64,000 bases of DNA from Psammoneis japonica. Taxonomy: Eukaryota. Position 1 is the stretch's first letter; each line of letters opens with the position of its first letter. The stretch is taken from positions 248,001 through 312,000 of the forward strand of contig QPGO01000053.1 in the NCBI GenBank assembly GCA_008632985.1, in the 5' to 3' direction. This document shows, piece by piece, positions 10,276 to 55,590 of the stretch. A model generated the notes under the pieces. The model did not search any database, was not told where the DNA came from, and worked only from the letters and a program-made list of their open reading frames with translations. Both the position numbers and the translations under genes were made by a program.

Positions 10276-13016
10276 GGGGCACTCTGTGTGAAGTGGGGCA
10301 ATGAACGCATTTTGTGTTTGATGTCCACCCAAATGAAGAAAAGTTTGCAGCTCAATCACACCTCCCAACAACACTTGAAGCTTTAAAAAAATTGCCTGCC
10401 CCACACAACTCTGCAGACACATTGAAAAACTCTTGCTTCGTGTGAAACAATGATGTCAAAAGTTCCTGTTGAATGCATGACTGCAAATGACACAAAGCGC
10501 CACTGAAGTCACACAGAAATGTGCTCACACAACACATGACACATGACGAGACAGCATCAATGTCACAGTCCAGCAGTGCAAGGCCCCCTGCCTGGAGCTG
10601 GAGCATCAGATGAAGACTTCTGTGTGTGGCACCTTTTTGCTGCTGAAGAGTGTCTCTCTCTTGCATTGTTCACTGAGTTTTGCTGGAGAGTGTTTGCTCA
10701 CATTTTGATGTGATCACTCCTGGCTGACTGGCAAGAATGTTTGCATTCTCTGGAGCTTGAAGCATGCAGCCACAGCTGTGGATGGTGTTGGCTGCCACAC
10801 AGTCTCACTCCAACAATGTCCAGGAGCATTTTCATTGTTCTTGCCATGTGGTGCCCACTTTCATTGCCAACAAATTGACGGCACTGCTTGCAGCAATGCA
10901 TTTGTTCTCATTGCTGCTGAGAACATGGCATTGTCAAACTTTGCACACCAAGAAGGCAACCATGTCAGAGCACAGCGTGCAACAATGTGCTGCAACACTG
11001 AAGCTTGTTTTCAATTTTTGCAAAAACAATGGCACCATTTTTTTTTGTTTCAAAGTGTCATTGAAATGTGCTGCTCACATTTCAGCCATGCTTGCTGTGA
11101 TGCCATGTGTGCCTCTCATTTTTTGGATGGTCAAGCACACAGCCAACATTGACTTTGGCACGCAAGTGAAGTGCAGCTTTGCCAATTTCATTGCACAACT
11201 GCATGTGAGACAGAACTTGTTCATGCCTGCACTCAGCAACAATGTTCAAACAACCCTTTCTCCCCCACGTGCACACCAAGGGACAAGAAGCCATGTGTGT
11301 TTCCACACAAGCTGTCTCCAGAAGCTGCAAAGAAACCATGCATGTTTCCACTCATGCTCCACCCACCCTGCCACTTTGCTCTCTTCACCAACTCTCTTTT
11401 TGCAGAATTGTGTGCCACTTGATGCTGCATGTTCATTTTTTACATTTTTGCTGCTGCTGCTGCTGCTTGTGCGCAAAACTCCACACAACTTGCAGCAGCA
11501 CACTCCCCCCTCCCTCTCCCTTGTCAAGAGAGCATGCCACATGCACAGTGATGGCAACCTCTGTCCAGTGCAAGCAAGCAACTGTTGCAGGGTCCTCTGC
11601 CCACCATCTTTGTGGCACATGAATTTTCTTCTTGTCGTGCAATGCCCAGCCAACAAACAACAGCATCAACAACCAACCAGTGTCAGCAAACAATTTGCTT
11701 CTCTTCTTTTTTGCTGTGCCAGCAGTTTGACAACACAATGTGAGTGTGCAAGGTTTGCATTGTCAGCTGCTGGCAAAGGACACACTGCACTCTCTCACTG
11801 GTTTTTTGTCAGAGAATGTGTGTGGCTGAAAGTGTGGTGTTGCCTCTTTGTGGCCTGGCACACCTCATTGACCAGTGGTGTTTTGAGAGCCAGAACATTG
11901 GTGGTGCATGACTGCTTTTTGATGAGTGGCATCAATGGCACAGTGTGGCCAAGGAGTGGTGCCTTGAAAACAAGAGGATCCCCAAACCAAAGTGCCTCTG
12001 TCTTGAAAACAACCAAGGGCAATGCTTGCAAAGCTTTTTTCTCTGCAATCTCTTGCTGCTCTGGCATTTTTTAGTTTGGCAATGTGAGCAATGGACCGTG
12101 CTGTTGTGGGTCAATGACCACACCAACAGGAAAAGTGGTTTTGGGCACGCCACTCTCCAACAACATCCAAGACCTGCACACGCATGGCAAGCTCTGTTGC
12201 ACGACACACTGTCCTCCCATTTCAACATCAAGACAAAGCAAAACCTCCAAAGAAGAAGGCCTGGACTCCACAATGCTCAGCCAAAAAGGGGAGGCACAGC
12301 TGCACTGAAACACATGGGACCAAGTGCCTGGCACACTCAACCTCTCAAGAGAGAGGTCAAAGACTTTGTGATGGGCAGCCAAAACAAGAGCCATTTCTGG
12401 GTTCAAAATTTCTCTCACAAAACCTGACCTTTCAAGTGGGGTGGTGGCAGAAAAAGGTGCAGCACATGGTGGCTGATGTGAAAAAAACAGCAGGTGCCAA
12501 GCTGTTTTGACAAGCAAGATTGGGCAGGAACACAGGAAGACTGGGCAAAAACACTGTGGCTGGTTTGTCATTTTGGCTAAAAAAGGAAAACTGTTTTCAT
12601 GCTGACAACTGCAAAGAATGTGATGAGTGGCAAGCGTGTGTGCTGCCTCATCATTTAAAACAATTTTTGGGTGAGTTGCAGCTCACACTGCAGCCCTGTC
12701 TGTGGAGATGGAACCACAAAACAAGCAGAAATGAAAACAGCCCCAAAAGAAGAGCAAGCCAGGAGAAATCATGATCAGCGGAGACCACTGTCAGATGGAA
12801 GTGAGCTGGCAAGGTGCTGGCCCCTCCAAGAGCATCGAAGCCTGGAAAAAGAAGACAGCAAAACACAGAAGCAACAAGACAGCTGAGCTGGCAGCAGCAC
12901 AAGTGACAAACCTCTGAGCCTGGTGATTGTGAGGGAGAGGAGAGGGGGGCAAAAAAGCCACACAGCATGATGTGTCTGTTTCAGCTGCAAAACAAGGAGG
13001 GGGGCAGCAAAACAAA
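10276..13016. mobile_element. Degenerate repeat/TE block, TpA- and CpG-depleted (host of the young Copia; continues after 20123)
   Basis: Almost no TA or CG dinucleotides and a strong TG/CA excess. Family not recognisable. Confidence 0.6.
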
Positions 13017-13292
13017 TGACAGGATTTGAACAGGATTTGGATGCGCGCGAAGCATCGCGCGCTGTTTAGTTTACCGCGCACAGTTTTGTGTGCTTTAGTT
13101 CCGCGCGTTCACGCGCGATGTAGTTTGCTTTCGAGCCACAAGGCTCACAAGAACAATGACAGTAGCCCGATTGTGCCGACTTGCACGTCTTTCGGCTCCT
13201 GCAACGGTCTCTGAGCGGAGACTCATCTGCCATTTAGACAGCAGTAAGGAGTTATTGTTTGAATTCTTGCCATTTGCCTTCAGTTTCTATCA
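13017..13292 (+). repeat. 5' LTR of the young Copia
   Basis: Matches 19847-20122 with 7 substitutions. Confidence 0.97.
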
Positions 13293-14231
13293 GATTAACA
13301 GTCTTGCTCATTGTCAACCCATTGAGCAACCGCCATCGTCGTCGTTGATTTACCAACGACGCCATTTCAATTCTACGTGGACCTCCGTATATATTCTACA
13401 TACATCGGCAAGTCTACGCGCATTCAATACCAGGGCATCGGCAGGAAGTTAACGTCACCGTCAAGTCTCCTTACCGCTGGATATCTGGATTGATTATACT
13501 ACCTTTGATCGCTGAAGACATACATTCAACGGTCATATCCAAGTCTATCCTTGATCCTCATCCCTTGATATACCTGTTCATCGGTTAACGGTCAAGAACC
13601 CTACATATTCAAGGATCTTCGTCGCTGAAGACATGTGTATATATACATGTCTTCACGGCCAAGAACCTGTACCCACTCTTCGGACTGCGGTTTTGCTGCC
13701 ACTCTACAAGCACACCGAGTCCATTGTACCTGATCTACCCCGGACTACTGGTGCTCTACAGTTCTACTAGGTCCACGAGGACGACTGTGAGAGCAAGCAG
13801 CCGTGATTGCAGCCTGCGTTGGGGCGAGGGTGCTTTCCCGCGTTTGTTCGTTCGTCCACAGCGCCCAACGCCTACGTCAACTGGCCAGCCTGATCGGGAA
13901 ATCCAACCGACATAAAATAAGAACGGTTCGGGGGTCTTGTCCACCTCTAGTCAGCTTGCCTGCAGGGGTTTACAACCCGCCACTCCGCTCGCAAGCAACC
14001 CAAAGCGCCACTGGCTGCGGGTTCGGACGTGCCGGCACAACTCTACGGTCCGGATGGGAAGTTTAGCACTTGACAACGAACGGGATGACAAAGCCCGGCG
14101 ACTTCTGATTTTAAGATAGTTCAAGATTTCAAGTCAAGTCCACTTCAAGTCAAGTCCATTCTCACCCAAGTTTCGAGTCTACCTTCGCTTCCCAACCAGA
14201 GTTGATTGTCCTGACACCACTTTTGTCTGCC

Positions 14232-17200
14232 ATGGTTCTCACTCGTCAGCAACAAACCGATGGTTTTGAGCACGTTGTTGGAGCCGTGCTTGCCCAAGGT
14301 GCTGGGAGTCCTCTTCGTTTGGCTTTGGCCCAAGACGGCACGGACTCGCATCAGGAACTGTTCACGTTCACACCGTCCCAAATCGACTCGCTTGAGTGCG
14401 ACAACGGCACTGATGTAATCCCTTTGCCCCGTGGTTACAAGAACATGTTAGCAGCACTGGTCAGCCTGTACATTGTCAAAGCACACAAAGGTCTTGACGT
14501 TGCCAACGACTCCTCTTTGTTCACGCATGACGAGTTCCTTGCCTGCCGCCTCAGCCCGGACTGCATGTCCTCTCTGTCCATCGGCAGCTCACCCCTTGCA
14601 CCTCCACATGTCACCAACCCGACCAAGGCATGCGACCCGGTGCGAGACTTCAAGCAAGGCATCAAGCGTGATCCCACCGCTTTCACAGCTCTCAAATCCG
14701 ACAAGCAGTGGCACACTTGGCACACCTCACTTGTGGCACAAGCCCGTGCCCAAGACGTCAAGTGCATTCTAGACTCGTCGTACAAACCGACCAGCCCCGA
14801 AGACAAACTGCTCTTTGCTGAACAGCAAAAGTGCATGTTCGCCGTCTTTGAATGCATCCTTCTCACCGACAAGGGCAAGGCTCTCATTCGCGAAAATGTG
14901 GGGTCCTCTGACGCACAGACCGTCTGCCGCTCCTTGTCTGAGTGCGCGCTTGCCTCCACCCATGCATCTGTCGAGTCCTCCACCCTGCTCACGCACCTCA
15001 CCACCGCACGTCTTGGTGATGGCACTTGGAAAGGTCCGACCCACGGGTTCATCCTTCATTGGCAAGATCAGTTGCGCAAGTGCGAGGCACTCATCCCCGC
15101 CAGCGACCACTTCTCTGAAGGACAGAAGCGCGTCATGCTCGAGAATGCCGTGCACCCTGTCGAGGAACTCCGTGCTGTCAAGAACCAAGCTGATCAGCAT
15201 CGACGCAGAGTGGCAAGAGCCTCACATCGATCAATGCTGTGGCTTGCTCCTCTCCGCGGCAGCTCAGTACGACAGCACGTTTCAACCCAAGACGACACCT
15301 CGAGCTCCCCGACGCGCCACACACGCACACGACGTCTGCTCCGAGGAACCGTCCGACGATGTGTTCTACGACATTGACAGCGACGTTGACGTCCTTCAAG
15401 CCAATGCTGCCTGCGCCCGTGGTCCCAGCCTCACCGGTGTCCAATGGAGACGTCTCCCTCCCGACCACCAACGGCTCTGGGATTCGTTGCCCGATTCCTC
15501 CAAGGCGATCATCCTTGAGCACTCTCGTCCGCCTCCCCGCAACCCGCGAGCCAGTGACTGCCATGAGTCTGTTACGGCCAACCTTCACGACCAACACCTT
15601 GGGAGTGACGGTGATGTCAACTTGTCCAACACGACTCCTGCTGACTGTGGTGACTCCGCTGCACATGTGGACGCCATTTCGGATGATCCCATCCTGGCGC
15701 ACCTCACCAAGCGCAAGCCACTGCCACCCGGTGATCTGCAACGTCTGTTGTCTCCTAACCAAGCCCCCAATGCCAGTCGACCTTGGCCATCCGCCGCTTC
15801 CTCTACCCCGCCAGCTTCTGCAGATGACATGGAACTTAACGGCCGCACTTGCCGCCGCGTTGACAACCACAATGTCATTTGCTCTGCCTCTGCTCATCGC
15901 TCCACACGCACTGGCGCTCTAGTCGATCGTGGGGCCAACGGCGGCATTGCTGGTGACGACGTCCGCGTCATCGCACGCACCTCTCGCCAAGTCGACGTTC
16001 AGGGCATTGACGATCATCAATTGGTGGACATCCCCATTGTCACCGCTGGTGCCGTCATTGAGACCCAGCGTGGTCCCGTCATCGCCATCCTCCATCAGCA
16101 CGCATGCACGGGAAAGGGCAAGACCATCCATTCCTGCGGCCAGCTCGAATGGTGCAAACAGGATGTCAACGATCGCTCTGTCAAGGTGCCCAACGGCTTG
16201 CATCGCATTGCCACTCCTGATGGCTATGTCATCCCCATTGACATCAAGGCTGGCCTGCCTTGTGTTGCCATGCGACCTTACACTGACGCCGAATGGGACA
16301 CCCTGCCCCACGTCATCCTCACCGGTGATGACACATGGGACCCTTCCGTCCTCGATCACTCTGTCACTGACAATGACCAGTGGTACGACGCGATCTCTGA
16401 CCTGCAGGACGATCCCACTGCCAACCCATTTGACGAATGCGGCAACTGCCGTCACCGTGTCGTTGTCAACGAGACCATCTTGTCCGCTTCCTTGTCTGCC
16501 GATCACGCGTCCGCCCTCGATGATCACCTCATTCCGAACGACGACGTGTTCTACGAGTGTCATCTGCATGCGATTGACCCCAAGGGCGATGACGTTCCAC
16601 CTCCGGAGCGCACTGTACAGCCCAAGGACCCCCCCTTCGAGTCTCTTCGGCCTTGCTTTGGCTTCCTGCCTGCCGATGCGGTCCGTCGTACTTTTGACTG
16701 CACCACGCAGTGCGCCCGCATGCCCGCCGGCACACACCTTCGCAAGGCCTTCAAATCACCCAACCCCGCCCTTAATGTGCACCGTCGCAACGAGCCTGTC
16801 GCCACTGACACCGTTTGTGCCGACACCCCGGCCGTCGACTCTGGTTGCACCAGCGCCCAACTGTTTGTTGGCACCGAGTCTACCGTCACTGACGTCTACG
16901 GCACTGAGACGGACAAAGAGTTTGTCAACACACTCGAGGATCAGATCCGTGAACGTGGTGCCCCATCCAAACTCATTAGCGACCGTGCTCAAGTTGAGAT
17001 CAGCAACAAAGTGCTCGGGATCCTACGCGCCCTCTTCATCTCCAGCTGGCAAAGTGAGCCTCACCAGCAACACCAAAACTTTGCCGAGCGTCGACACCAG
17101 ACTGTGAAGCGCATGGCGAACACTGTCATGGACCGTTTTGGTTCGCCCGCCCACACATGGCTGCTGGCGCTCATGTGCGTGTGCTTCACACTCAACCATG

Positions 17201-19899
17201 CAGCGTCCCCACGTCTCCACTGGCGCACGCCCCTCGAGACTCTCACTGGATCCACCCCGGACATCAGCCCATTGCTTCGCTTTCACTGGTGGGAACCAGT
17301 GCACTTCCACCTCGATGACTCCAATTGGCCGTCCGAATCTCGTGAGTTGCGTGGACGCTTCGTTGGCATTGCTGAGCACGTCGGCCACCAGATGACCTTC
17401 AAGATTCTATCTGACGAGACTCAGAAGATCCTCTGCCGGTCCAACGTTCGCTCCGCCACCCCCGATCCTGCCGTTCGAAACCTGCGTCTTGATCCTCCTG
17501 ATGGGGAGCCACCTGAACCCATCATCAAATCTCGCCATGACGACAACCCCGTCGATTCTCCTGATGGGGAGATCAGGACACCCAAGATGCCAGTTTTCGA
17601 TCCGCAAGACATCATTGGACGTACCTTCCTCATGCAGCCACAAGAGGACGGACAACGCCACAGAGCTCGCATCGTCAAGGCCGTCGAAGACCACGAATGG
17701 AAAGTGAACGGCAATCCCGAGCTCACTAAGTTCGTCTGCTCTGTCAACAATGACGAATACGAGGAAGTCCTTGCCTGCAATGACATCATGAATCACATTG
17801 AGCAAGAAGACGAAGACACCACTGTTTGGAAATTTCGACGCATCGTGTCACACGAAGGCCCTCTGAAGCCTCACGACCCAACCTGGAAAGGCTCAAGCTA
17901 CAACATCATGCTTGAATGGGAAAGTGGGGAGATCACGTCCGAGCCTCTTGCCATCATCGCCAAGGACGACCCCGTCACCTGTGCCATCTATGCACGAGAG
18001 AACGGACTCCTCGACACGGATGGATGGAAGCGGTTCCGCACCATCGCGAGGCGCCAAAAGAAGCCATTTCGCATGGCCAACCAAGCCAAGCTTCGCTCCT
18101 TCCGCACTGCACCTCGCTACAAGCACGGATGCGAAGTTCCCCGGAACTACAAACACGCCATGTCACTGGACGAACGCAACGGCAACCGCAAGTGGGGAGA
18201 CGCAACTAATCTCGAGATGGACCAACTCGACGAATACGAAGTCTTCCATGACTGCGGGCCCTTCAAGTCTTCCACTCCTCCTGCGGGACACAAGAAGATC
18301 CGAGTGCACCTGGTGTACGACGTGAAACACGACGGTCGCCACAAGGCACGACTCGTAGCCGACGGGCACCTCACGGACGTACCTGTCGACAGTGTCTGCT
18401 CCGGAGTAGTCTCCCTTCGTGGCCTTCGGCTGATGATTTTCCTGGCCGAACTCAACGAGCTGGAGACATGGGCCACCGACATTGGCAATGCCCACCTTGA
18501 AGCCACCACCAAGGAGAAGCTTTACATTGTAGCTGGACCCGAATTTGGCAAACTCGAAGGACACATCCTTGTCATCCACAAGGCACTGTATGGACTCCGC
18601 AGCTCCGGTCTCCGCTGGCACGAGCGCTTCGCCGACTGCCTGCGAGCTGAAGGCTTCTTCCCCTGCCGCGCCGAACCCGACATTTGGATGCGCAGGAACG
18701 GCGACCACTGTGAATGCATTGCCGTTTATGTGGATGACCTCGCCATTGCCATGAAGGACCCTCAATCTTTCGTCGACACTCTCACGGAAAAGTGCAAGTT
18801 CAAGCTCAAGGGTGCGGGACCCATTGAGTTCCATCTGGGTTGCGACTTTTCCCGGGACCCCGACGGAACCTTGTGCCTGTCTCCGCGCAAGTACATCGAG
18901 CGCATGGTCGACAGCTGCGCCCGACTGTTTGGGGAGAAACCTGCCACCAACGCCCTGTCACCTCTAGAGAAGGGTGACCACCCCGAACTGGACACTTCCG
19001 AACTGCTGGGACCCGATGGCATTCACAAGTTCCAGTCTCTTGTTGGTTCACTCCAATGGGCAGTGTCCCTTGGTCGAATTGACATTACCACGGCCGTCAT
19101 GTCACTCTCTAGCTTCCGAGCTGCGCCCCGTCAAGGCCACTTGGATCGTGCCAAACGCGTCTGTGGGTGCCTCTCCAAGATGCGACACGGTGCTCTCCGC
19201 GTTCGCACGGAAGAGCCCGACCATTCGGATCTCCCTGCTCCGGCCTACGAATGGATGCATTCCGTGTACGGTGAAGCAGAAGAGATGATCCCGAAGGACG
19301 CTCCACCGCCCCTTGGCAAGTTCGTCACTGCCACCCACTACGTCGATGCAAACTTGTGCCATTGCATGCTCACCGGGCGCTCTGTCATGGGAATGCTCCA
19401 CTTCCTCAACAAATTCCCGGCTGATTGGTTCTCCAAGAAACAAGCCACCGTGGAGACTGCAACCTGCGGATCTGAATTTGTTGCCGCAAGGAATTGTGTT
19501 GAGCAGATTATCGACCTGCGCATCACCCTGCGCTGCCTTGGCGTCCCGATCCGTAATGTCAGTTACATGTTCGGTGACAACAAGTCGGTTGTAGACAGTG
19601 CCACCATCCCGCACTCCAAGTTACACAAGCGACACACCGCACTGTCGTTCCACCGTGTGCGTGAGGCAATTGCCTCTGGTTGCCTTGAGTTCCACTTCAT
19701 CGAAGGCTCCCGCAACCCTGCTGACATTCTCAGCAAGCATTGGGGTTACTCCCAAATCTGGGACCTTCTCCGACCCCTCATGTTCTGGAACTTCATTCCA
19801 TCCGAAGTCGAATCTGTTTCTGTGGCTCCTCAAGCAAACTGGGGAGTGACAGGATTTGAACAGGATTTGGATGCGCGCGAAGCATCGCGCGCTGTTTAG
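14232..19899 (+). pseudogene. Copia gag-pol polyprotein, frameshifted near 15200-15230 and hypermutated (Tyr->Cys/His)
   Basis: Gag DFKQGIKRDP; protease LVDRGANGG; integrase VATDTV..LISDRA..QNFAERR; RT KARLVADG, KALYGL, YVDD; RNase H HYVDA, GSEF, FGDN, NPADILSK. Confidence 0.93.
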
Positions 19900-20122
19900 T
19901 TTACCGCGCACAGTTTTGTGTGCTTTAGTTCCGCACGTTCACGCGCGATGTAGTTTGCTTTCGAGCCACAAGGCTCACAAGAATAACAACAGTAGCCCGA
20001 TTGTACCGACTTGCACGTCTTTCGGCTCCTGCAACGGTCTCTGAGCGGAGACTCATCTGCCATTTAGACAGCAGCAAGGAGTTGTTGTTTGAATTCTTGC
20101 CATTTGCCTTCAGTTTCTATCA
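19847..20122 (+). repeat. 3' LTR of the young Copia
   Basis: Follows the PPT; paired with 13017-13292. Confidence 0.97.
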
Positions 20123-20127
20123 ACAAA

Positions 20128-20151
20128 GAAGAAGAAGAAGAAGAAGAAGAA
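20128..20151 (+). repeat. (GAA)n microsatellite next to the insertion site
   Basis: About 8 GAA units directly after the TSD. Confidence 0.9.
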
Positions 20152-20949
20152 TGAGAGACCAGCTTCTGGCGGCAGTCTTGACAAAGTGAATTTTGCAGCA
20201 GCATGACAACACTGTGTGCCAGTGCAGCCGGCAAGCAGCACCAAGAGCTTGAGAGCACAGCTGCATTTGTTGTTGCAAGTTGCAGGCAGCTCCTTTTCAC
20301 GACACTCCTCAGCAGACATCAGCTGTAAAACATGCATGAAAACAGTGTCACACTGAGTTGGAAATGATTTTGAAAGCAACAAAACATCAAAATTCTAGCC
20401 AAAAAGTGCTGTTGTCCAAGCTTGCAGTGGCTTCTGAGGCAGGTGTTGGAAAAAGGTGGCTTTTGGTGCATCGGAGCAACAAGTTTTGAAGGGGCAAAAG
20501 AGGGGTGGGCAGCAGGAATCCTCACTGCAAAAAGAGCCAGTTTTCTAAAATGGTTGACTTGGGGTCATGTTTTGCACATCTGGCAAGATGGTGCAGCTTG
20601 AAAAGCTGCTCTTGGAGCACACAACAACATGCTGGGGGGCCATTCTTCTTCCAAGCAAAGACGTGATGTGTTTTGTGCAGGGGAAGAGCTGGTGTGGGCA
20701 CAAGTGAAAACAAACAGAAACTGACAGTGAGACAAAGGAGCACATGTGCAAAATGGAAAGAATGACTCTACACTGCATTGTGCTGCTGCTGTGCAAAAGG
20801 AACATCACACAGTTTTGTGGAACAATCAGAGGGTCCTCCATGGTGTTGGAAAGGGTTGATCTGGAGAAACATGTGGCGGGATTGTCGCGCGGAGTGCGCT
20901 TGGAGATGGAGAGAAAAAGGGCAGGCCAAAAGTGCAGACAGATGGTTGA

Positions 20950-21600
20950 GAGGAGGAGTTGGTGACAGTGGGATGGTGAAGAAGAAGAGCTTGGCATGTG
21001 GAAAGATGGTTGGAGAGAGCAAAGCCGAAGTTGAGGCTGAGGATTTGAGAGGCCCAGTCAGAGTTGAGGAGTTGCAGTGTGATGGGAGGAGCCAAAGCGG
21101 TCCAGTGAAAGTTGTTTCCAGGCCGCATTGGAGCAGGTGAGGAGGTCAGAAGGTGTGAGCAGTGAGTTGGTGAAAGTGGACAAGGGTGCTTGGCAGTTGG
21201 AAAGGGAGGGCGGGCTTGTCCAGGGCGGTTTTGGAGGAAGGGGGGTGGGATGGTGGAGGAGGATGTGGTGGAGATGCCGAAGAAAAAGAGACGTGGAAAT
21301 GACATCCGATTCTGCCAAGGCAGTCAAATGTAAAAGGAAGGAGAAAGAGCCCAGCTTGATTGACAGCGTCAATGATGTCGGGGCCATGGGTGGGTGGTGT
21401 GGAGCGTCCGAGAAGCTTGTCCCCCCATGTGCACACTGCTGAGGTGAGCCTTGTTTTTATGGGTTTTCAGGGACAGGCAAACCAGGTGCAGGAGGCGGCG
21501 GAGCTGGCGGTACAGTGACATCGATGACCAAGAATTGGTGGGTGGATGGGGCGTTTGGTGGTGTAGAACCAGGGATGAGTTGAACGGTGGGCTGGTCAGG
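20950..21600 (-). mobile_element. 3' fragment of a non-LTR retrotransposon with a restriction-like endonuclease (CRE/Ambal-like), degenerate
   Basis: Minus-strand fragments FLVIDVTVPP...KLLGRS..DIIDAVNQAGLFLLPFTFDCLGRIG...WASQILSLNFGFALSNHL resemble the PD-(D/E)xK RLE C-terminus. Frameshifted. Confidence 0.5.
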
Positions 21601-22035
21601 TCGGATGGAGTCGTCACGACAGAATGGTTGAAGCAATCGTGTTTTCTCGGATCATGTTAGTCCCGTTAAATCTGTTAAATATAAAGAACAATTATATAGA
21701 TAGCTTCTGTTCTTGATGACATGTGCCAGCTATTTAAAAATTCATTGAGATAGATTATATTATGAAACCTCTTTTTATGTCCAGTTCTGAAAGCATAAGT
21801 AGCCGTAGTCATTTCTGCTGAAGAGATCTTAACAATCGTCGGAAAAGCGACGCGGACTTCGATTTATGGCGGGAAGAAATGAAACATTTAACAAATGGTC
21901 ATTTTTCAAATGTCTGTTGCGAATGCCTTGGGTCCGAAGCACTCTAGTCTATCCCCGCCTCACCTTTTCGCCGTTGCCGTTCACAAAAAAAGAATGTCAA
22001 GAAAAGAATTAAAACATCGACTATCGAAAGAAACG

Positions 22036-25000: not shown

Positions 25001-25899
25001 GATGAGCAGTGCGATGCTCAATGCCCAGATCAAGGAGCCTGTTGTCTTGACAATGGAGCTTGTGAAAAGACGACTTTGGAGAACTGCGACAATAGGGTCT
25101 TTCGGGGTCGCGGAAGCGAATGCATAGACGTAACCGGCAGGCCCGTTTGCCCAACGCCCACTCCAACGGAGTCTCCGACCCCGATCCCAACCGAGAAACC
25201 ACAGGGAGCTTGCTGTACGCCCCGAGGAGAATGCTTTGACGACGTTTTAGAAACGATCTGCGGTGGCGTGATTGGATTTACGTTCTTTGGAGATGGAACA
25301 AGCTGCAATGATCCAGATGTTCAGTGTCCCACCCCAGAGATAACAATCCCTCCACCTCCTGACATCGTAGAGAGAGCTTGTTGCTTGCCTTTCGGGGACA
25401 AAAAATGCGAAGTTCTCTCTGAGCTGCTCTGCGCTTCTGAAGGGGAGAATACAAAGAAGATGACACGACGTGTGCTACTGTAAGTTGTCCAAGGAACGGG
25501 GCCTGCTGTTTTAACGATGGAACTTGTGACCGTAAGACTTTGGGTAACTGCAGGGATGAAAATGGAGTCTTTCAGGGTCGCGGTACAAGTTGCAATGATC
25601 CGGGCTTTTCTTGTCCTATCACGACTCCAACACTCCCTCCTGGAGTGTTGGGCCGTTGCTGTCTTCCCAGCGGTGGATGTGCTGAAATAGATGCTTCATT
25701 CTGTGATGCTCACAATGGCGTATACCAAGGCGATGGTGAAACCTGTGGTGGTATGACAGATCGTTGCCGTGACACAGGAAGCTGCTGCGTGCGCGAAGAT
25801 CCGTATTGCCTTGTTGTTAACATTGCGACTTGCCAGGAGAACGGTGGTGTCTTTGGCAATGTCGCATGTTTATACCGCCATTGTTCTGGTGCGGGTTAG
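22036..25899 (+). CDS. Secreted multi-exon Cys-rich repeat protein (GACC-xn-C-xn-GGxYxGDxTxC repeats with TPSPT linkers)
   Basis: Signal-peptide exon MKMVCKGVPLFLTFVLCEAT; many GT-AG introns; roughly 20 GACC-type repeats. A 1-nt frameshift in a G run near 25445 separates the last repeats. Confidence 0.8.
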
Positions 25900-39579: not shown

Positions 39580-39789
39580 ATACCAGTACGAGTAGGTCTA
39601 GAAAACCACATCGGCATGCAATCTCAATCGGCATCATCGGCGGGCGGGCTGGAGGTGGTAGGGACGGACGGAAGTACAAAAATTGCGTAGAAAACCCTGT
39701 ACTGTACAGTACGTACAGACAGACCGCCACTCCGATTCTACCGTATTCTCGCGACATGGCAAAGAATTTGTTGCGCAGCAAGTCCCATG

Positions 39790-45700: not shown

Positions 45701-48700
45701 CCTCCAATTTGTCAAACAGCATGTGGATGCATCTGAGAGCCATGCAAGATCAGCAATGTGATGGAGCAATCCAAAAAATGTCAAAGCAACACAAGCTGGA
45801 CACCCAAAGCAGCACAAAAGCTGAGCCAGCAGGAGTTGATGATGCAATGACCATGACATCATGGACCAAGCTCTTCATGGAGCACCAAGGCCATCCAATC
45901 AACAAGAACATCCTGTGTCAAGACAACAAGAGTGCCATCTTGCTCAAGACCAATGAACACAGAAGCATGGGGAAGCACTCCAGAGCTCTCAACATTTGGT
46001 GCTTCTTCTTCATGTCCAATCAGATTGAGAAGGGTGAGCTGAGGCTGCAATGCTGAACTGCCAATGACATGTTGAGAGCCTTCATGACCAAGCTGTTGCA
46101 AGACAAGAAGTTTTGAAAATTCAAACAAGCCATCACAGGATGTCAATGGTGAGCATGACAGGCTGAGTTCCTGTCCGGTGATGTCAGATGAGAATTCTGA
46201 TGTGCACGGGTGAAAGATCCCTGATGCACGTGGGTGAGAGATCCCCATGAGACCAAGACCTTTAAGGAGCCAAGAGACAAATGGCTCACAGCACTTCAAT
46301 GGGATGTTGAAAGTTCACAACATTTGTTGAGAACAAGCCAGGATGAGCAATGGAGCAATTGTGTGTGATGCAAAGACACAGCACTGGCCAAAAGATCATT
46401 GTTGGATGGACACCAAAGCAATCATCATGTGGCCATTGAACAGCATCAGGCCAATGAGATGTCCTTGCTCAGAAAGGATGGAAAAATGGGCCAGTCAGAA
46501 AGCAGATCTCATTGAACAATTGGCCAGGAAAGCACTGGCAAAAGCCTCAGATGTGGGTCATTCTGCAGAGATCAATTGCTGGAAATGGAGAAGGCAGCAG
46601 ATGCAAGAGATGCCCTGGACTGCATCCATCTGGTGGTCAAAGAAACAGAAGACAAGAATGCAGTCATTCATCTGATGTGGGAAGAATTAAAGAATGCACT
46701 GCAACAACCAAAATGGGTTGAACTGTGCAAGAGAAGAACTGAGTTCATGGAGAACCCACACACACACACATGAAGTTGCAGGTTGGTCTCCCAAGATTGA
46801 TGAACACATGTCCACTGCCACACCAATGATTTCCACACATGATGACTTTGAAGATCTTGAAGAAGACATCAAGGGAAAAGTTGGGGCCTTGCACCTGACT
46901 GAGGAACACTGGAAGATTGTCAGAGGCAATGCCTGCAGGCAACAAGTCCCATTCTGTGCCAGATGGGGAGTGATGTGCAATTTTAATGAGGCATTTGACC
47001 AAATGACAGTGGCAGGCTCAGAGGGTGACAACTTGCAGTTGTCCCCAAGTGGGTGAGATGTGGGCTGTCTGCAAGAACAGTTGAGCATGAGTTGTCCTGA
47101 AAAATTGAAGTCCCTTGATGAAGAGAATCACAAATGAAGCTGACAGGACCCAAGGCTGCTGCTGACTGGTGAGGGATCCAACTGGAGTGATTTTTGATGT
47201 CAAAAAATTGGTGCTGTTTTTCCACCATGACGTTGAGGTTGTGAAGCTGGGTTTGATGTGGACATGCCACAGAATGGAGTTCTTAGAATTGCACCCAGAG
47301 AGATGAGACAACTGCTTGCTTGTCTGTCAGACAACATTGTGAAAGAGATTGTTTGTTGTGCCCACATTGGGTGTTTCTCATGGAAGCCATGGAAAAGGAC
47401 AACCCACAAGTTTCATCACATGGTGAATTTCTCAGACAAAGGACATCATGCCTCTCTGCAACATGGCAACCAAGATGTCAAAAATGTTGATGAGAAAAAT
47501 GGTGTCCCAGGAGAGGAAATTGTCAAGCACCTTGTCCCGAATTCTTGGAACACCGGTGAGAGCAGCAGGAGTGTGTTGGAGCATCTGGCTTGAGGGGCAC
47601 CACATGTGACCCAGAAATGAAGTTGCATCTTTTGAGTCCTGATGTGGTGAGTTGATGACTGTTCTTCAGAGGATCTTCTCCATCATCAATTGCAATCATC
47701 TCACCAACTTTTTATGCTCACTCTTTGGAGTGAATCACACGGTTCATCAAGAATGACAAGTGGCATCTGACAACACCCAACAATTTGTTTGGTGTGCACA
47801 TCATGACATTTGACATTGAGGCAAGCCACAGCTGACACAGCAACCAGGGCAAGTGTGACAAGCAGCACAAGAAGCCTGGTGGGATTCCCTTTTGGTGACA
47901 TTGACTTGCTGGTTCAACAGTTGTGCAATTTGCACATTGTGCAGTCACACCAGACCAGCACCACAGTGAAAACAGTTGGGTGTTTTTGTTCAAGCAGGAG
48001 CTGCAGCAGCAGGAGTGGCAGGGTGGGTGATGGCAATTTGCTCCCACGCTGGAAGCAAGCAGGAGGAGCTCCCCAGATTGCAGGCAAGAAGCATGGCAGC
48101 AACAACTGCAGCAGGCAGCCACTGTGTCAGACATGGCACAACCACAACACCATCTTGAGCTGAGAGAAATCACATGATGTGATGTGCCACACACTGCAAA
48201 GCAAACACACAAAAGCTGCACCATGTGGTGTGTGTCAGGGACTGTGAAAAAACCACAAAAAAACAATGCAGCTGCACACTGCACACCACTTCTTCTTCTT
48301 GTGTTGAACTCTTTGTCTCAAAGTGCTTTGCAGCAACACATGGAGTTGCCAGATGGGGCCCAAATGCTGGCACAACTCTTGAGAGTGAGCAGCACCAGCA
48401 CAGCAACTCTGTCTCATGAAAGATTTAACAAAGATGAACAAACCAGCAGAGGTGATCCAGTGATGTGGAAACTTCAACAGGAGGGCAATGCATGCAAAGC
48501 CAATGTGTGCAATTTTCAGCATCCTTCTGCCTTTTGCAAGGGAGAAAATGCAACAGGAGCATGTGCCACATCTGATGGAAACACTTGACACATGCATGCA
48601 TCATGATGATTTTTGGCATCACCTGTCCTTGCTGCATGTGCTCAACACATCTGTTGTGCAGTTGGGCAGCATGGATGAACTTGGCATCATCTTGATTGTG

Positions 48701-50490
48701 GGCTGCTGTGCTGTTTCCAGGCACCTTTGTCTGTCTGTGTTGCCATTTTGATGTGAGCACAGCTCCAGTTGGAGTGGTGGGTGAGCTGTCGCTTGTTGTG
48801 GATTTGGTTTTCATGCTTTTGTTGGGTGCTGAGCTTTTAGATGCACAGCTGGCCAGCTGCTGCTCCACCATGTGCTGCACTGCAGCCAAAGCCTTGTGGT
48901 TTTTGAGTGCAGAACAAACAACACACACAAGGGGCAAATTTCCTTTTTTGTGCACCCCTTGTGCTGCTAAAACCCACATGCTTTTTGTGTGTGCAGCAAA
49001 CAGTGCAATTGTTGCAAACTCTGACAACCTTCTTTGACCAAAAAAAGGTTGTTGTTTTGTTTTTAAAAATCACACCTGTGTGCTCACCCCAAAGTGTTGG
49101 GCAATTATTCTCAACAATGGGGCAGTGGGGGGATGCAGAGCACAGCTCAAGAATGTGATCCAGCACAAAAAAGCCAACCTCCGCCAGTGCTCTGGATGAT
49201 TTGGTCAGCCAGATGGTGTCCCTGGGAGCATCCACACCATCTCATCCCAACTGGCAATGGTGTTGGAGCCCAGCCACCAGCCACTTGTGCCTGTCAGCTG
49301 AGTTTCAAAAAATGTTTGAAGTGCCAGCCCATTTTTTGTGGCAAGAAGCAGCAACACCCAATGTGCACTCAACAAATCCAGCAAATTCCACACATCTTTG
49401 CCAGCCATCAATGCTGTCAATGCACCAACTGTGTTGAAGTTCATGTGGACTGTGCCAGAGTCACAAAAGCTGCTGAGTCTGCATGCAAGGCTTGGAGAGA
49501 GTTCATTTTTGGCATGCAAGCACAAACCCATGTGGGGCTCAGCATGCTCCTCAGCTCCATGCAGAACAGTGGCACAAGGATCAGAAAGATCCATCACTGT
49601 TTCAACCAACCTGGAGAACATGGAGACATGAAACAACATGACAGTGGTGCAAGAGCACTCCTCCAGCCACAGGTTGCAGCACGAACCAGCTTTTCCATTT
49701 TGTTTTGAAAGAAGACTCTTGCACAGCATGCACAGCCAGGAGGATCAACACAAAAAAAGCACAACACACACAAGTGACAGCTGGCTTCCAGTGAGCACAA
49801 GTGCACTTGTGCAATTCGTTGCTGTTGTTGTTTGCAGTCAATGACGACTTTGTCATTTGCAATCCAGAGAACTCCACAATCAAGAGCTCTCAGCAGCAAA
49901 AGTGAGCCAAGGCAAACGCTCTGGAGTGACAGCAGCACATTGCAGCAGCAGCACTTTTGACAAGTTGAGATCTTTTAACTGTGCCCAGTTGGATCTGTGC
50001 TGAGCAATGTTTCTGAAAAGCAACGCAGGAATCACAAGTGCGAATGTTCCAACACAACATTCTTCCTCTTTTTAATCTCCCAGAAATTCGTGAGCACATT
50101 GAAGCCCATCTGCCCCCAGTGAGAGACACATGCACCAATTGAGTGTTTCTTGCAGCATTGGAGAAAAGACAACTGGTGAAACCACAGTGTGCCAAGGACA
50201 GTGAGTGCCTCACCGAACCAAACTTTGCAGCTGCTGTGTCTTGTGCGCATGTCGTGGGGGGTGGGTGGGTGGGGGGGTTCATTTTTGCTGCTGACAATTC
50301 CATTCTTTGTTTAGGCCTGTTCAGTCTCCGAGCATGTGAGCTCGTCAAATGATTCGCGGGAGATAGATGCCCCTGCTTGTGCTGATAAATGAGTTTTGCA
50401 TGGTTGGTCCCATGTGCCGGTATGATGGGAAACAGCATCACACATGAAAATTGTTTCCGTTGACAGCACAAGCAAGAGACACGCCTGCCA
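39790..50490. mobile_element. Degenerate TE block, TpA/CpG-depleted, containing the nested old Copia
   Basis: Abrupt loss of TA and CG with TG/CA excess; ~120-bp internal direct repeat at ~40328-40447 and ~40759-40880. Confidence 0.65.
41289..47919 (+). mobile_element. Full-length but heavily decayed Ty1/Copia LTR retrotransposon (CoDi-II-like)
   Basis: LTRs 41289-41637 and 47574-47919 (TGTTG...CAACA); TSD GTTGT at 41284-41288 and 47920-47924; AGCAGGAGTG before the 3' LTR. Remnants: DPIKLLRLVHSL (gag), HMPEVECSVKAIKER (IN), ADVPNTFIQ and LWHKKF (RT), SSTKAE and ILCQDNKSAI (RNase H). Confidence 0.9.
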
Positions 50491-50985
50491 GGCAAAATAC
50501 CGGTAGAAAAATGTCAAAACCAACCATTATAATGTACATAAAATTCGAATTTCGATTAACATCTATGCGCACTAAGGGTAGGATGATGAAACTGACTATG
50601 TAGAAGTTTTCGCACGAATGAGTCATGATACACACAGCACATCACTATTACCTTTATATCATAATTTTGAGTTTACAGGACGTATGCAAAATACATAAAA
50701 TGATGTTCGTGAACAAACTTTATATATGTTGTTTTGATCGTGTGGTTGCCTCACAGAATTTTTTAACAACATTCAGATTTGAAAAAAATTGGTTGATGGC
50801 GTGGCCACACCGCAACTTGAAACTGCACAAGAAGAAACGCCATGTCGTTAGCCCTACTGTAGGGTTGCACTCTACAATACTGCTACACCTCATCTGTGGG
50901 ACGGTCCGGTATCAGTTATACTACTCTGCTCATCGTATCTAATTAGAAAATACACGTTTCCCTTTTCTCTGTAAAGCTCTTCATT

Positions 50986-52315
50986 ATGTCAAAGTTGTAC
51001 CAGGATCCGTTTGGCCCACCGTGGCGATTGAACTGGCTTCGCATGATTCTTACGTGGGAAGCGAGCATCTTTCAGTTTTTCTGGGTCGAGTGGTTCCTCG
51101 CGCTCGTTGTCTGTACTATAGTTATTTTGACAATTTACTATGCTCGAGAAGACACCAACCAAGATGAACTAGACACAGATTTTCTGTCGCTCGTGGATAC
51201 TGTCAGTTTCATCAACACACGCTTTCAAGCTGCTGTTGGTTTGATGCTCGGTTTTTACACTTCCACTATTTACGGGCGATGGTGGAGCGTTCGCTCTACA
51301 GAAGGAAGCTGTATGGGCGGAGTCTACACCCTCTCTGTGAAGGTTGCAACGTTGATTCGAGATAGCGAGACATCGCAGCAGATCCTTGGTCAAAACAGAG
51401 TAGACGGAGACGATTCCACAACTGAGTATAGTTCCGACGCCGAAGAGATCGTACCCGCTGTGCAAGATGTACGCATGCAGCTCGTTCGTTGGGTTAACTT
51501 GGCACATGCCTTACGCGTGGGAGAAGTGTTTGAGAAGGTGCCAAACGAGTTCTCTTCGTTGGAAGCGCTGATGGACTGCGGACTCTGCACAAAATCCGAG
51601 TATGAGTATTTGAATGAGACTAGCCGCTCGCGCTTTGTTGTTCCTCTATTGTGGTTCCAAGATCTTGTGATGCAGCTCACCGAGAAGGAGCTTTTCGGTT
51701 GCAATGAGTCGAGGATCAGACTCTTTATTGAGCCAATCTGCGCAATGCGTGGGTCGTTGGGCGGACTCGGAACTCCAAAAAGTGTGCCGGTACCTCTCTC
51801 TTATCGCCAGTTGGTGAATGTGACGGTGCGCTCTTACATGGCCATTTCCCTCATCGCTTCAGCCCTCATAGATATCCGCAAAGAAGAGAATTTAGGAGGG
51901 TTGACTAAAGGAGGTACGTTTCCTCATGGCGAGATCCCCTCCAGTGCTGTTTGTGTATCACACCGACTAAAATACGCTCTTCCCTTGTACAGCGTTTTGG
52001 TCAATTCTCTCCTTTGCCTTTGAGTATTTTTTGTTCGTTGGATGGTTGACAAGCGCGGATGCCTTGGCCAATCCCTACAGGTACTGGGCGGACGCATTTG
52101 AATGGGAGTCCTATGTCAGTTCGACTCTTCTAAACACGATGGACATATCAACTGGATATAGAAATGGTTCCAGTTCCCTCTCCGTGGTTAACGCAAGCTG
52201 TAAAGCTGTGCGCACAAAAATGATGAAACGATCTTACTCATCATTGGATACTGCGCTGAAGCATAAGAAGCATACAAGAAAATCTATGATTGTTGGCCAC
52301 TATGCTAATGAGTGA
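50986..52315 (+). CDS. Bestrophin-like channel, copy 1 (intron 51914-51992)
   Basis: LTWEASIF, LGFYTSTIYGRWW, LVRWVNL, VPVPLSYRQLV and FVGWL..ADALANP. Confidence 0.82.
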
Positions 52316-52499
52316 CTTGGCTGCAACAGACAAGAGAAATCAGCTGGGAACATATCATAAGGGTATGGTGTACCGTAGATATCTTTTAATTTAGAACAGT
52401 TGCAACATCTCACGCATGCATAATAGTGTCTATTACAAGCTACATTTCTTATCATCTTAAAGCGGCACTCGTGACCAAGGACTGAACAAGACCGCCCAT

Positions 52500-55400
52500 T
52501 TGATGATGCAAGTGAAAGTGTCATTCGTGCAGCACCTTGGTGCAATGATGTGGTGCACTTGCAGGCAGCGCTTGTTCTTGGCCTCATGGCAGCTTTGGCA
52601 GATTGCAGCCAGATGGTGTTGTCCTCAAATTGTTTCATGTAACAAGCCACCAGTGCATTCTGAGAGCCAGCTTTCAAAATCTTGGAGTGCACAATGTGTT
52701 TCAATGTTTGTGTGCAAGCCCACTGTGTTGAATGCAAAGGCAGTTGTGCCTCAGGCAGCAGCCATGTCACAGCTTGCAGGTTGGCAAGGGACTTGGCATG
52801 AATCTCTGTCTGTGATGAACAAGTGGGAGAGCACAAGCAGCTTTTTTTATTTGCTTGTCTTGCCAGATCAAGAACATTCTGCTGAGACTGCCAATGCAGC
52901 TGATGGGGAATCTTGTTCTTCAGGGGCAGCAATGAACTTTTGTGGTGATGCAGAGTTCTTGGATGTGGCAGGACAGGATGAAATCTTCTGTCACAAGGCA
53001 GGTGTGTGTGTGCTCTGCAGCAGCCAAGAAATCTTCTGCTTCCTTCAATGCTTTCACAAGCTGTCTTTTTGTGTCCTTAGCAAGGAGTTGGTCTGTTGCC
53101 AGTTGTGGAGTCTTCAGGTGTTGGCAGTTCTGCTCATTTAACAGGCAGCCTCTGTCAAGGCCAGAGTCTGCTTTTTTGAGGCTTGTGGGAAGTGGTGCTG
53201 TGCTGGCACAAGAGTTTCCAGCATCTTGAGCCAGCCACTGCTTGGCAGCTCACTTGTTCAATGCAATTTGCAAAGTCCACCATTTGTTGTTGCCACAGGA
53301 CCAACCAAATGCCTGGCTGCAAGCAAGCTCTTGGAGGGTGGTGCCTTGACAAAGCTCAACAGCAGCAAGGTGACAGAAATGAGCCAAAACTGTGAAGAGG
53401 GCATGGTGGCTTTGGTGAGCCAGTGTCTTCCCACAGAGGGCAGAACCACTTTAGAAACATTGCTTGAGGTGATGCTTTGTGAGAAAGCCACCCAGCAGCA
53501 TTGAAGCTCATGAGCATGTGGCACACATTGTCAAGCTTGGCAAAGCCATGCCATTTGAGCCTCTTTCCCTCCAGAGGTGGGGATGGTGAAGATGAGCTGA
53601 TTGTCCCTCCAGAAGATGGCAAACTGGTTGACCTGCTTGAGTGGCACACAGCACCAAATGCTCAGCAATGGCACATGGTCCTTCAGGACTTCAATCTGCC
53701 AGCTGGCCAGATCCAAAATTTTCACATCATCACCTCAAAGGAGCACACATCCTCATTGAACAGCAAGTCAATGCAAGCTGCTGGTGCTGGCACCTTTTTG
53801 AAAGGGTCACCAGCAAGAAAACCAGCAAGAAAAGATGCCACAAGAAAAACGCGAATTCCTGAGGTTTGGCCCAAAACCAGGACAAAGATCCTGTGTGTTC
53901 CATGGTTTTCATTGCTGCAATGTGACCAAGGAATGTCATGCACCAAAGCACCAATGACCAACAACTCAAAAATTTGCATGACCCAGCAAAGTGATTTCAG
54001 CTGTCTGCTGAAAATTGTGTGGTGCACACCCAAAAAATCCAACATTTGCTTCACAAGTTTTTTTCACCATTTTGCTCAGAATCTTGGACAACAATGAGAA
54101 AATTGCAGAGGTTTCCATGCATTTTTGGTGCAAAGAAAAAGTCAGTTTTGGCAACATGCTGACTGACCACCAACCAAAACAACTTCCGACCTCCCTCCTG
54201 GGGGGCTGTGCATGTTGCATTCAAGCCTTTGTGAGTGGTTCCAACTCAAGAGAACCTGGCTGTGCTGTTGCATGAAGCAGTGCAATGTTGACAGAAAAAA
54301 TGATCATCACATTGGTTGCCATGATTTTGGTGTTGTCAGAGCTGACCGTGAAAGTCCACACAGCACGCAGCAGGGTGCAATCACACAAGTCCACTTGGAC
54401 AACTTATTTAGAAGGAATGCTCATCAATCATCTCATTGCCAGTGTTGGGCTTTTGCAAACAGGCCTCTTGTCCAGTTTCTGTCAGCACTGACAAGCCCAA
54501 TTTGTGAAACTGGTGTCTGGAGTTGATCTTGTTCTTGAATCGCAAGTGAACACACAGCCCAAGACTCAGCCAATGTGAGCAACTCATCAGAGTGTCTGAT
54601 GAACAAATCTTCATTGAAAATCAACTAATGCAAGATCATCCATGTGCAAGACTTTCTCAACATGATGGCACCCCAGGTTAAAACAAAGATCCCATCCTTG
54701 GAGTCTTCAGCTCCTGGAGCCACAAAATCCTGGCCTCAGCGATTGTTGGCTTCAGCAACAAGCACTCAGGTGCAAAACTTGCTGCAATGTGGCCTGCCAT
54801 GACTTTGACTCTGTTGCCCCATTTGCAATCTTCCAGTGCTTCAAACAAATTGGCTTTTGTGTTGATCACTGTGATGCACACCTGAGTCATCATGTCCCCT
54901 GGCCCAGTCAACCCAAACTCTGTTGGCCGAGTGCCCTTTCTTGTTCCAGCCCTTGCCCAGCCACCAGAGCTGCTGGACTTGGCTGCAGGTCACCCAATGC
55001 TAAAACACAACCTTTTGAATTCCCAGAGCCTTGGCTTGTTTGCACCCAAAATCACCTGGTGTTGGGCGGCCATCTCATGAGCCAGAGTTTTGACAACAAA
55101 ATGAGCTGCACGTGGTCAGCGGGGTGGGAGAGGCACTGCAAAACCAACACCCATGCTGGAGCCTGATGGGGAGCAAATGGCTGGTTTCACTCCAACTGGA
55201 TGATCTGATGAACCCAGCAATGACCCACCTGACTTGCCCTGGGGCCCCGCACGCAACATCCAGGCACACAACAGCAAAGAGGGGCGGGGTCTGTGGGGCA
55301 AGGCCAGCGCTGAAGAACATCCCTCTTGAGCCTGACTTCTTCCTTTTCAGGCACACAAGAACATGATTTGTGCCCTGGCAACAGAGGAAGCACATGTGTG

Positions 55401-55590
55401 ATCCAACAAGAGCCAACAAAGAATGAGATGATGGCAGTTGAGCCTTGCATCACATTGCACTGCAAGAGAGCCGCACGTGGTTGCAGGCTTTTTGAACCCC
55501 ACACTGGACCTCAGACAGTCTTCTGGTGGGCGATCACACTTCTCTTCCAAAGATCAGAAATCACACCTGCGGTCAGGCTGTAAACAAACC
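52500..55590. mobile_element. Unclassified TpA/CpG-depleted insertion between the two bestrophin duplicates
   Basis: Same compositional signature as the other TE blocks; sits at the duplication junction; no recognisable domains. Confidence 0.55.

Follow-up and report, generated by a model that had tools for sequence, protein, structure and literature searches.

The window analysed here is a stretch of 64,000 nucleotides (nt) of contig QPGO01000053.1 from Psammoneis japonica, in which ordinary host genes are interspersed with four sharp-edged blocks, together about 18 kb, that are almost devoid of both TA and CG dinucleotides. Host genes in the window encode TCP-1 gamma, a cGMP-dependent kinase, a bestrophin and other proteins, and their reading frames are long and uninterrupted. 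TCP-1 is 83-85% identical to diatom proteins (Attheya, Asterionellopsis, Eucampia and members of the Thalassiosirales), which points to the window being nuclear genome DNA of a diatom. The blocks are very likely relics of mobile DNA, one of which is demonstrably a Copia retrotransposon with long terminal repeats (LTRs) at 41289-47919. A second, younger Copia element sits inside TA/CG-free DNA, so the first two blocks are the two parts of one relic. The features are given below, with dinucleotide counts followed in brackets by the ratio of observed to expected frequency (O/E).

10276 to 13016: TA/CG-free block of 2741 nt, left part of a relic split by the younger Copia insertion; TA 5 (0.03), CG 17 (0.11), TG 315 (2.03), CA 338 (1.80)
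13017 to 20122, plus strand: young Copia LTR retrotransposon, with LTRs at 13017-13292 and 19847-20122 and an open reading frame (ORF) at 14815-19899
20123 to 21600: right part of the split relic, with 8 TA and 28 CG in 1478 nt and CG only partly lost toward its right end; within 20123-21450, TA 5 (0.06), CG 22 (0.29)
39790 to 50490: largest TA/CG-free block, 10701 nt, a probable nest of relic DNA with many related contigs in sequencing run X1; TA 31 (0.04), CG 70 (0.11), TG 1224 (2.02), CA 1322 (1.84)
40850 to 41030: island of about 180 nt inside the preceding block, still with about 10 CG and 2 TA
41289 to 47919, plus strand: old, heavily mutated Copia LTR retrotransposon, with LTRs of about 350 nt at 41289-41637 and 47574-47919 that have TG..CA ends
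42535 to 46149, plus strand: frameshifted Copia pol remnant of the old element (integrase, reverse transcriptase and RNase H), found by tblastn with database homologues (best E 2e-105)
50930 to 52457, plus strand: bestrophin gene segment, with a second copy at 55812-57344 (88% identity, spacing about 4885 nt), which served as an unmutated control
52500 to 55590: TA/CG-free block of 3091 nt between the two bestrophin segment copies; TA 11 (0.05), CG 21 (0.11)

The rest of the window, outside the four blocks, was used as the host comparison and has O/E values of 0.55 for TA, 0.97 for CG, 1.18 for TG and 1.20 for CA. In the blocks TA falls to 0.03-0.06 and CG to 0.11-0.29, while TG and CA each rise to about 1.6-2.0, so that nearly all pyrimidine-purine steps are either TG or CA. 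The same holds for individual 1-kb windows within the blocks (TA 0.01-0.10, CG 0.03-0.27, TG+CA 1.7-2.1), and relative to the host rate per dinucleotide the deficits have binomial p values from 1e-12 to 1e-170, those of TA lying between 1e-16 and 2e-138. The edges of the blocks are sharp at a scale of 100 nt, with the right edge of the second block lying nearer 21600 than 21450. A preliminary description of this DNA, made from the letters alone, had reported TA-poor, TG/CA-rich blocks next to ordinary genes, and the dinucleotide counts confirm this (TA O/E 0.03-0.06 against 0.55); its figure of five TA in 10276-13016 proved exact. Its account of TA loss stands, but it under-stated the depletion of CG, which in these blocks matches that of TA in strength.

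The share of pyrimidine-purine steps among all dinucleotides is unchanged, at 0.22-0.247 in the blocks compared with 0.240 in host DNA, as transitions alone would give. TA or CG make up 39% of these steps in host DNA. Taken together, the composition and the unchanged step share make the blocks look like normal DNA in which each TA and each CG has been converted by one transition to TG or CA. The GC content of the blocks is likewise unchanged (0.46-0.49), and the lack of a rise argues against a general bias from AT to GC. Both strands are affected equally, with 2032 TG and 2132 CA summed over the four blocks, and TG and CA follow one another along the blocks in random order (runs-test z -0.5 to -1.6), so no long single-strand tracts were involved. 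Strand-processive action was considered as a mode of change and is rejected by the runs tests.

The direction and timing of the change can be read from the old Copia element, which is flanked by a 5-bp target duplication (GTTGT at 41284-41288 and 47920-47924). A phmmer search with its reverse transcriptase frame (45005-45634) retrieved 1699 relatives from the database at E <=1e-3, the best at 2.5e-48, and the relatives that carry a name are Copia proteins of the diatoms Grammatophora, Cylindrotheca and Epithemia. As an outgroup for polarising the changes, the 150 best homologues were reduced by the 26 that contain at most one Tyr, which left 124 unmutated proteins and 311 conserved columns in alignment with the pol remnant. 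None of the 19 conserved Tyr is kept in the old element; eight have become Cys (TGY, where Y is a pyrimidine), eight His (CAY) and three Phe. Among 23 conserved Arg, seven are kept (six as AGR, where R is a purine, and one as CGG) and 12 have become Cys, His, Gln, Trp or a stop codon, as predicted by change of CGN to TGN or CAN. Most other conserved residues survive, including 20 of 23 Gly, 15 of 19 Pro and 12 of 15 Phe. Changes of A to G outside TpA, which would appear as Lys to Arg or Glu, Asn to Asp, Thr to Ala, Ile to Val and Met to Val, are rare and account for about 11 of the 113 columns with conserved Lys, Asn, Asp, Glu, Thr, Ile or Met. In the alignment, motifs such as YG, LWY, NPYDPC and HDYLGM of the unmutated proteins carry H or C in place of Y, apparently at random, both in the window and in the Tyr-free proteins. 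The loss of all 19 conserved Tyr, 16 of them to TGY or CAY, indicates that the ancestral element had TA at these positions and lost it by single transitions on either strand.

The two LTRs of a retrotransposon are identical at the time of integration, and differences between them have therefore arisen in place. Over 345 aligned sites, the LTRs of the old element differ by 30 transitions within pyrimidine-purine steps, 12 other transitions and 15 transversions, with 11 gap columns. The paired states of these steps are CA/CA (30), TG/TG (29), CA/TG (12), CG/TG (3), CA/CG (2) and TA/TG (1). The 12 discordant CA/TG steps imply about 24 fully converted ancestral TA or CG sites, and with the six half-converted steps this gives about 30 converted steps out of 77, in agreement with the 39% of steps that are TA or CG in host DNA. 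Since CA/TG discordance is found between LTRs of a single insertion, the conversion took place at the level of DNA, after integration and independently in each LTR. The changes of TpA to TpG or CpA on both strands, in mobile-element DNA and not in neighbouring genes, had been proposed in the preliminary description, whose core inference is correct, and are now polarised both by Tyr codons and by LTR divergence. That TA-to-TG/CA change exceeds other A-to-G change is seen from the 16 of 19 Tyr columns against about 11 of 113 other columns, and the DNA of the host shows no depletion comparable to that of the blocks.

The young Copia element has a target duplication of its own (ACAAA at 13012-13016 and 20123-20127), LTRs of 276 nt that are 97% identical, an ORF of 1694 codons with a match to RVT_2, and a CG O/E of about 1. 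All seven differences between its LTRs are transitions inside pyrimidine-purine steps, which cover 52% of the bases (p 0.01), and none lies elsewhere. Four are switches between TA and TG or CA, one is a switch between CG and CA, and there is one double change between TG and CA. By site copy, 4 of 22 TA differ compared with 1 of 42 CG (p 0.04). These differences suggest that the young copy is already being affected by the TA process, which would be running ahead of CG loss. An intact reading frame is no proof that a copy is unedited, because change of TA to TG or CA never creates an in-frame stop codon.

The same protein-level signature is present in sequences from other sources. Of the 150 database homologues of the old element, 26 have at most one Tyr together with raised Cys and His, and the share of Tyr is bimodal, although the fraction of 26 is inflated because the query is itself mutated. 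The relatives listed by a profile search were all unmutated, none of the 116 newly fetched proteins being low in Tyr, and a word-based search with the mutated ORF gave no matches. Among 19 metagenome contigs with Copia relatives, four show loss of Tyr and the other 15 keep 80-100% of it. Contig L012 keeps none of nine conserved Tyr (six Cys, two His). Contig L010 keeps 4 of 10 Tyr and all three CGN-encoded Arg, with O/E values of 0.21 for TA and 0.81 for CG in its first half, and L018 keeps 4 of 7 Tyr and 7 of 8 CGN-encoded Arg. In these three contigs, 3-8 of the 5-10 conserved Tyr are now His or Cys. The fourth, L019, keeps 2 of 5 Tyr, with CG at 0.10-0.21 and TA at 0.36-0.67. A different state is represented by L001 (5330 nt), in which CG O/E is 0.23-0.71 along the length, TA is ordinary and 15 of 17 conserved Tyr are kept; this is CpG decay without loss of TpA, and the TpA process is therefore not universal among such elements.

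The losses of TA and CG are uncoupled in both directions. TA is lost first in L010, L018 and the young Copia LTRs, and CG is lost first in L001 and L019; within the window itself, the segment 20800-21600 is TA-free and retains about half of its CG. Because of this uncoupling, the data are read as two processes sharing their targets, namely decay of methylated CpG and a TpA-specific change of A:T to G:C. Loss of TA requires a change at A or T and so lies beyond cytosine deamination. It is very probable, taking the explanation as a whole, that the blocks are relics of mobile DNA on which two dinucleotide-specific transition processes acted after integration. In the first of these, TpA is changed to TpG or CpA (A:T to G:C) on both strands of the DNA, and in the second CpG is changed to TpG or CpA (C:G to T:A), likewise on both strands. 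The direction of change, its timing after integration, its action on both strands, its confinement to the blocks and the separability of the two processes follow directly from the data. Near saturation, the two leave TG or CA at almost all pyrimidine-purine steps and destroy coding sequence by missense change, Tyr becoming Cys or His and CGN-encoded Arg becoming Cys, His, Gln, Trp or a stop codon. The CpG part would be the ordinary decay, by deamination, of methylated CpG where elements are silenced. The TpA part would be the same kind of process as has been measured directly in Bigelowiella natans (see below); chemically, it would most likely be enzymatic deamination of DNA adenine preceded by T, the enzyme being a deaminase of the ADAT2/TadA type that is aimed at silenced or foreign DNA.

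It is possible, though unlikely, that a single oxidative pathway produced both losses, with a TET/JBP-type dioxygenase oxidising the 5-methyl group of 5-methylcytosine in CpG and of thymine in TpA in silenced DNA. The products (5-formylcytosine and 5-hydroxymethylcytosine, and 5-hydroxymethyluracil and 5-formyluracil) mispair and give C-to-T and T-to-C transitions, respectively. Such a pathway would fit the nature of the targets, each a 5-methylpyrimidine within a self-complementary pyrimidine-purine step, and their joint loss from the same blocks, as well as the equal effect on both strands and the correlation between TA O/E and CG O/E over the 19 metagenome loci (rho 0.63, p 0.004). It does not fit the uncoupling in both directions, with TA lost first in L010, L018 and the young LTRs and CG lost first in L001 and L019, nor the hypermutation in B. 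natans, which is reported as TpA-only in a preprint whose text, as far as covered here, does not mention CpG (bioRxiv 10.64898/2026.01.13.699255).

Another explanation dispenses with a TA-specific process and holds that the elements were TA-poor from the start through GC-rich codon usage, so that only decay of methylated CpG acted on them. The ORF of the young Copia element indeed has a TA O/E of only 0.18-0.29 in all codon phases at a GC content of 0.58, compared with 0.5-0.6 in its LTRs and 5' region, and conversion of all CG in such a sequence would bring TG+CA near 1.9 and GC near 0.49. The low TA of this ORF may be a partial footprint of editing or may simply reflect GC-rich codon usage; its product contains 1.4% Tyr, 3.0% Cys and 4.5% His, and the conserved YGL and YVDD motifs are kept. 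TA in the blocks is about five times lower than in the young ORF, however, and the explanation is contradicted by the conserved Tyr of the old element, none of 19 being kept and 16 lying exactly one transition away, a pattern repeated in L012, L010 and L018. An origin from TA-poor elements is thus highly improbable.

For the TpA process the preliminary description had put forward a TadA/ADAT-like DNA adenine deaminase and a modified adenine at TpA, both of which stay as candidates, and also error-prone patch repair of the Pol eta type, recruited to silenced chromatin and changing WA to WG (W being A or T). TA fits the WA motif and A is indeed changed to G, but AA, the other WA motif, is undepleted in the blocks, as is TT (AA O/E 1.04-1.29 in the blocks against 1.13 outside; AA share 0.085-0.10 against 0.076), and conserved Lys and Asn rarely became Arg and Ser. 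This candidate is accordingly disfavoured and has very little chance of being correct. Hyperediting of retrotransposon RNA from A to I by an ADAR-like enzyme before reverse transcription, fixed on integration, would suit an element that is a retrotransposon and an enzyme class said to favour U before the edited A (discussion of bioRxiv 10.64898/2026.01.13.699255). It is contradicted by the 12 CA/TG discordant steps between LTRs of one insertion, since independent conversion of each LTR after integration excludes editing of RNA beforehand; TG and CA are also equally frequent without strand runs, and block DNA beyond the element is affected as well, which leaves this reading with hardly any credibility.

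An artefact of sequencing or assembly, such as miscalled modified bases, is extremely unlikely. Base-calling of modified DNA can shift composition blockwise, and the three sequence runs listed with this DNA all come from a single sample, with no RNA data set listed that contains it. De Bruijn contigs of run X1 nevertheless reproduce the block at about 60-fold word depth (58-67 over the block compared with 59 in the single-copy flank), with 0-4 differences per piece of 0.4-2.6 kb, which argues against an artefact of assembly or base-calling; these short-word contigs carry the bases of the assembly and not TA at the converted sites. The changes moreover obey the logic of codons and of LTRs, and the protein-level signature recurs in other data sets, among both metagenome contigs and database proteins. 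In all, 1232 contigs of the run were aligned, and in the related ones among them the differences from the window are 194 transitions (51 A>G, 50 G>A, 49 C>T and 44 T>C) and 53 transversions; adjacent swaps between CA and TG are found among them at 43408-9, 43741-2, 44098-9, 44747-8 and 47667-8.

Several points weigh against the reading of the blocks as mobile-DNA relics altered by two post-integration processes. Transposon nature is proven for only 6.6 kb (41289-47919) of the 18 kb, and the correlation of TA with CG over the 19 metagenome loci could have a shared cause. Run X1 probably derives from the same sample as the assembly, which makes the two dependent data, and the changes in the young LTRs are unpolarised and involve only seven sites. 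The LTR pairs suggest a rate at least about 20-50 times the background, which is below the 1000 times measured in B. natans; this figure is an underestimate owing to saturation, and slow decay and bursts are indistinguishable by it. Finally, the targeting of the deaminase to silenced or foreign DNA, and the enzyme itself, are what we infer from the pattern of change.

We know of no identified enzyme by which a natural pathway edits genomic adenine to defend against mobile or viral DNA, and to our knowledge direct evidence for such a process comes from a single preprint of 2026, whose subject is a chlorarachniophyte. Mettrop et al. (bioRxiv 10.64898/2026.01.13.699255) describe TpA-specific hypermutation of integrated viral DNA in mutation-accumulation lines of B. 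natans. In the parts of that preprint covered here, an integrated giant-virus region and a virophage region together accounted for 231 of the 302 nuclear mutations, 230 of these 231 were A-to-G or T-to-C changes, and all of those were on TpA, at a rate about 1000 times the background and in some lines only (bioRxiv 10.64898/2026.01.13.699255). Coding sequences of B. natans with low TpA are reported to be enriched in reverse transcriptase and DDE domains, and the authors propose an ADAT2-like DNA adenine deaminase; CpG, diatoms and stramenopiles go unmentioned in the text of the preprint as covered here (bioRxiv 10.64898/2026.01.13.699255). The suggestion in the preliminary description that such a pathway had not been described has thus been overtaken, as far as TpA-only hypermutation of integrated foreign DNA is concerned. 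Full-text literature searches, whose coverage excluded subscription-only papers, turned up no account of diatom transposons losing TpA.

The likeness to B. natans, to the extent that the preprint could be compared, is close. In both cases A:T changes to G:C at TpA only, giving TpG or CpA according to strand, and both strands are used, as seen here in the eight Cys and eight His among conserved Tyr. Change is limited to foreign or mobile DNA with regional limits, which in the window are edges sharp within 100 nt beside host DNA with a TA O/E of 0.55, and over the long term the result is low TpA together with high CpA+TpG. There are also differences. The host of the earlier case is a rhizarian whereas that of the present one is a diatom, and the targets in B. 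natans are a single-copy giant-virus insert and a virophage with 3.3% and 9.2% TpA left, in contrast to the LTR-retrotransposon relics of the window, which are saturated at 0.3% TpA. CpG is lost here as well (CG O/E 0.11-0.29), which is best read as a second process, and a flank rule for TA survival is seen here that does not appear in the main text of the preprint, as covered (bioRxiv 10.64898/2026.01.13.699255). That rule concerns the 52 TA that survive in the blocks, 34 of which lie in YTAR contexts (TTAA, CTAA/TTAG, CTAG) compared with 295 of 1645 outside (p 2e-13); RTAY contexts (ATAC/GTAT, GTAC, ATAT) account for 1 of the 52 but for 506 of the 1645 outside (p 2e-7). A simple single-strand reading, in which the A of TAY is the preferred target, was not confirmed by the 16 Tyr codons; a purine precedes the codon in six of eight His and four of eight Cys outcomes, which is not significant (p 0.6).

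Fungal (ascomycete) repeat-induced point mutation (RIP) resembles the process in the window in being a transition hypermutation of DNA after integration, with inactivated mobile elements and a dinucleotide signature as its outcome. RIP depends on methyltransferase homologues of the RID/DIM-2 type; it changes C to T, mainly CpA to TpA, and thereby creates TpA and AT-rich DNA. In the blocks, by contrast, TpA is destroyed and GC stays at 0.46-0.49, and this opposite direction together with the unchanged GC content shows that the process is not RIP. Nor is a dependence on duplication, as in RIP, seen in the duplicate present in the window. The 1.5-kb tandem bestrophin duplicate, whose copies flank the TA/CG-free block at 52500-55590, is normal in composition (CG O/E about 1) and at 88% identity shows an ordinary spectrum of 88 transitions and 91 transversions, so duplication alone is probably not the trigger. 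For this reason, and because most of the block DNA is without proven repeat status, the term repeat-restricted used in the preliminary description goes further than the data.

Decay of methylated CpG, as in silenced elements of vertebrates, is matched by the change of CpG to TpG or CpA on both strands, seen here in the Arg columns and in the LTR states CG/TG (3) and CA/CG (2). CpG hypermutability is reportedly also found in transposons of basidiomycetes (PMC3318451). It explains only the CG half of the pattern and cannot remove TpA. Diatom transposons are CpG-methylated according to the portions consulted of two reports (PMC2806351; PMC12344493). Animal ADAR hyperediting shares with the TpA process the change from A to G and a preference for U or T before the edited A. 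It acts on RNA before integration and in strand-coherent clusters, whereas the change in the window came after integration and is symmetric between strands, and it is therefore not editing of the ADAR type.

By these comparisons, the diatom window would represent a second lineage with the same kind of process as B. natans, seen in a saturated end-state on LTR retrotransposons and superimposed on methyl-CpG decay (bioRxiv 10.64898/2026.01.13.699255, as covered here). A more specific proposal, which we put forward tentatively and regard as rather less than an even bet, is that diatoms possess a dedicated defence pathway, a kind of A-type RIP, in which an enzyme edits the adenine of TpA steps in double-stranded DNA that is silenced or foreign. 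Such a pathway would be related to the process in B. natans and hence old within the group of stramenopiles, alveolates and Rhizaria (SAR), would recognise the duplex step with its flanks, so that YTAR survives and RTAY is erased, and would be faster than, and independent of, methyl-CpG decay. With the window, the range of the process would come to include a second SAR lineage, one of ecological dominance, and its targets would include LTR retrotransposons as well as viral inserts. The long-term outcome becomes visible as TA/CG-free relics and Tyr-free pseudo-proteins, which provide a simple screen for genomes and metagenomes. The LTR pairs serve as internal clocks and, with the candidate flank rule, both constrain the enzyme, and some diatom species are amenable to genetics, which would allow knockout of candidate deaminases or dioxygenases.

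As to the content of the remaining block DNA, tblastn with all fetched Copia proteins matched only the two Copia elements of the window and nothing elsewhere in the blocks. Searches with Pfam at curated cut-offs found no family in 21 and then in 108 open frames of the blocks, and comparison of 30-mers in a purine/pyrimidine alphabet found no hidden homology between blocks. The island at 40850-41030 may be a younger, very high-copy short element that inserted after mutation; the bin that contains it (40605-41038) has a summed word depth of 53875 in run X1, compared with about 60 elsewhere. DNA that is free of TA lacks TAA and TAG stops and so gives long false open frames that belong to no detectable family, for example one of 436 codons at 10764-12074 on the plus strand. 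Tyr is missing from the products of these block frames while Cys and His are abundant, which can mislead gene callers, and in annotation such DNA will yield long false ORFs whose proteins escape domain searches.

No Rfam family reaches its gathering score anywhere in the window. A degenerate tRNA-like sequence at 10152-10215 on the plus strand, about 60 nt from the left edge of the first block, scores 17.5 bits against the Rfam tRNA model, compared with a cut-off of 29 bits, and is negative by ARAGORN. Two host frames without a Pfam family are associated with tandem units. One of these frames (5943-7826, minus strand) contains 138-nt units of 95% identity at 6563-6838, and the other (23906-25483, plus strand) is accompanied at 24133-25586 by diverged units of about 460 nt that are 68-72% identical.

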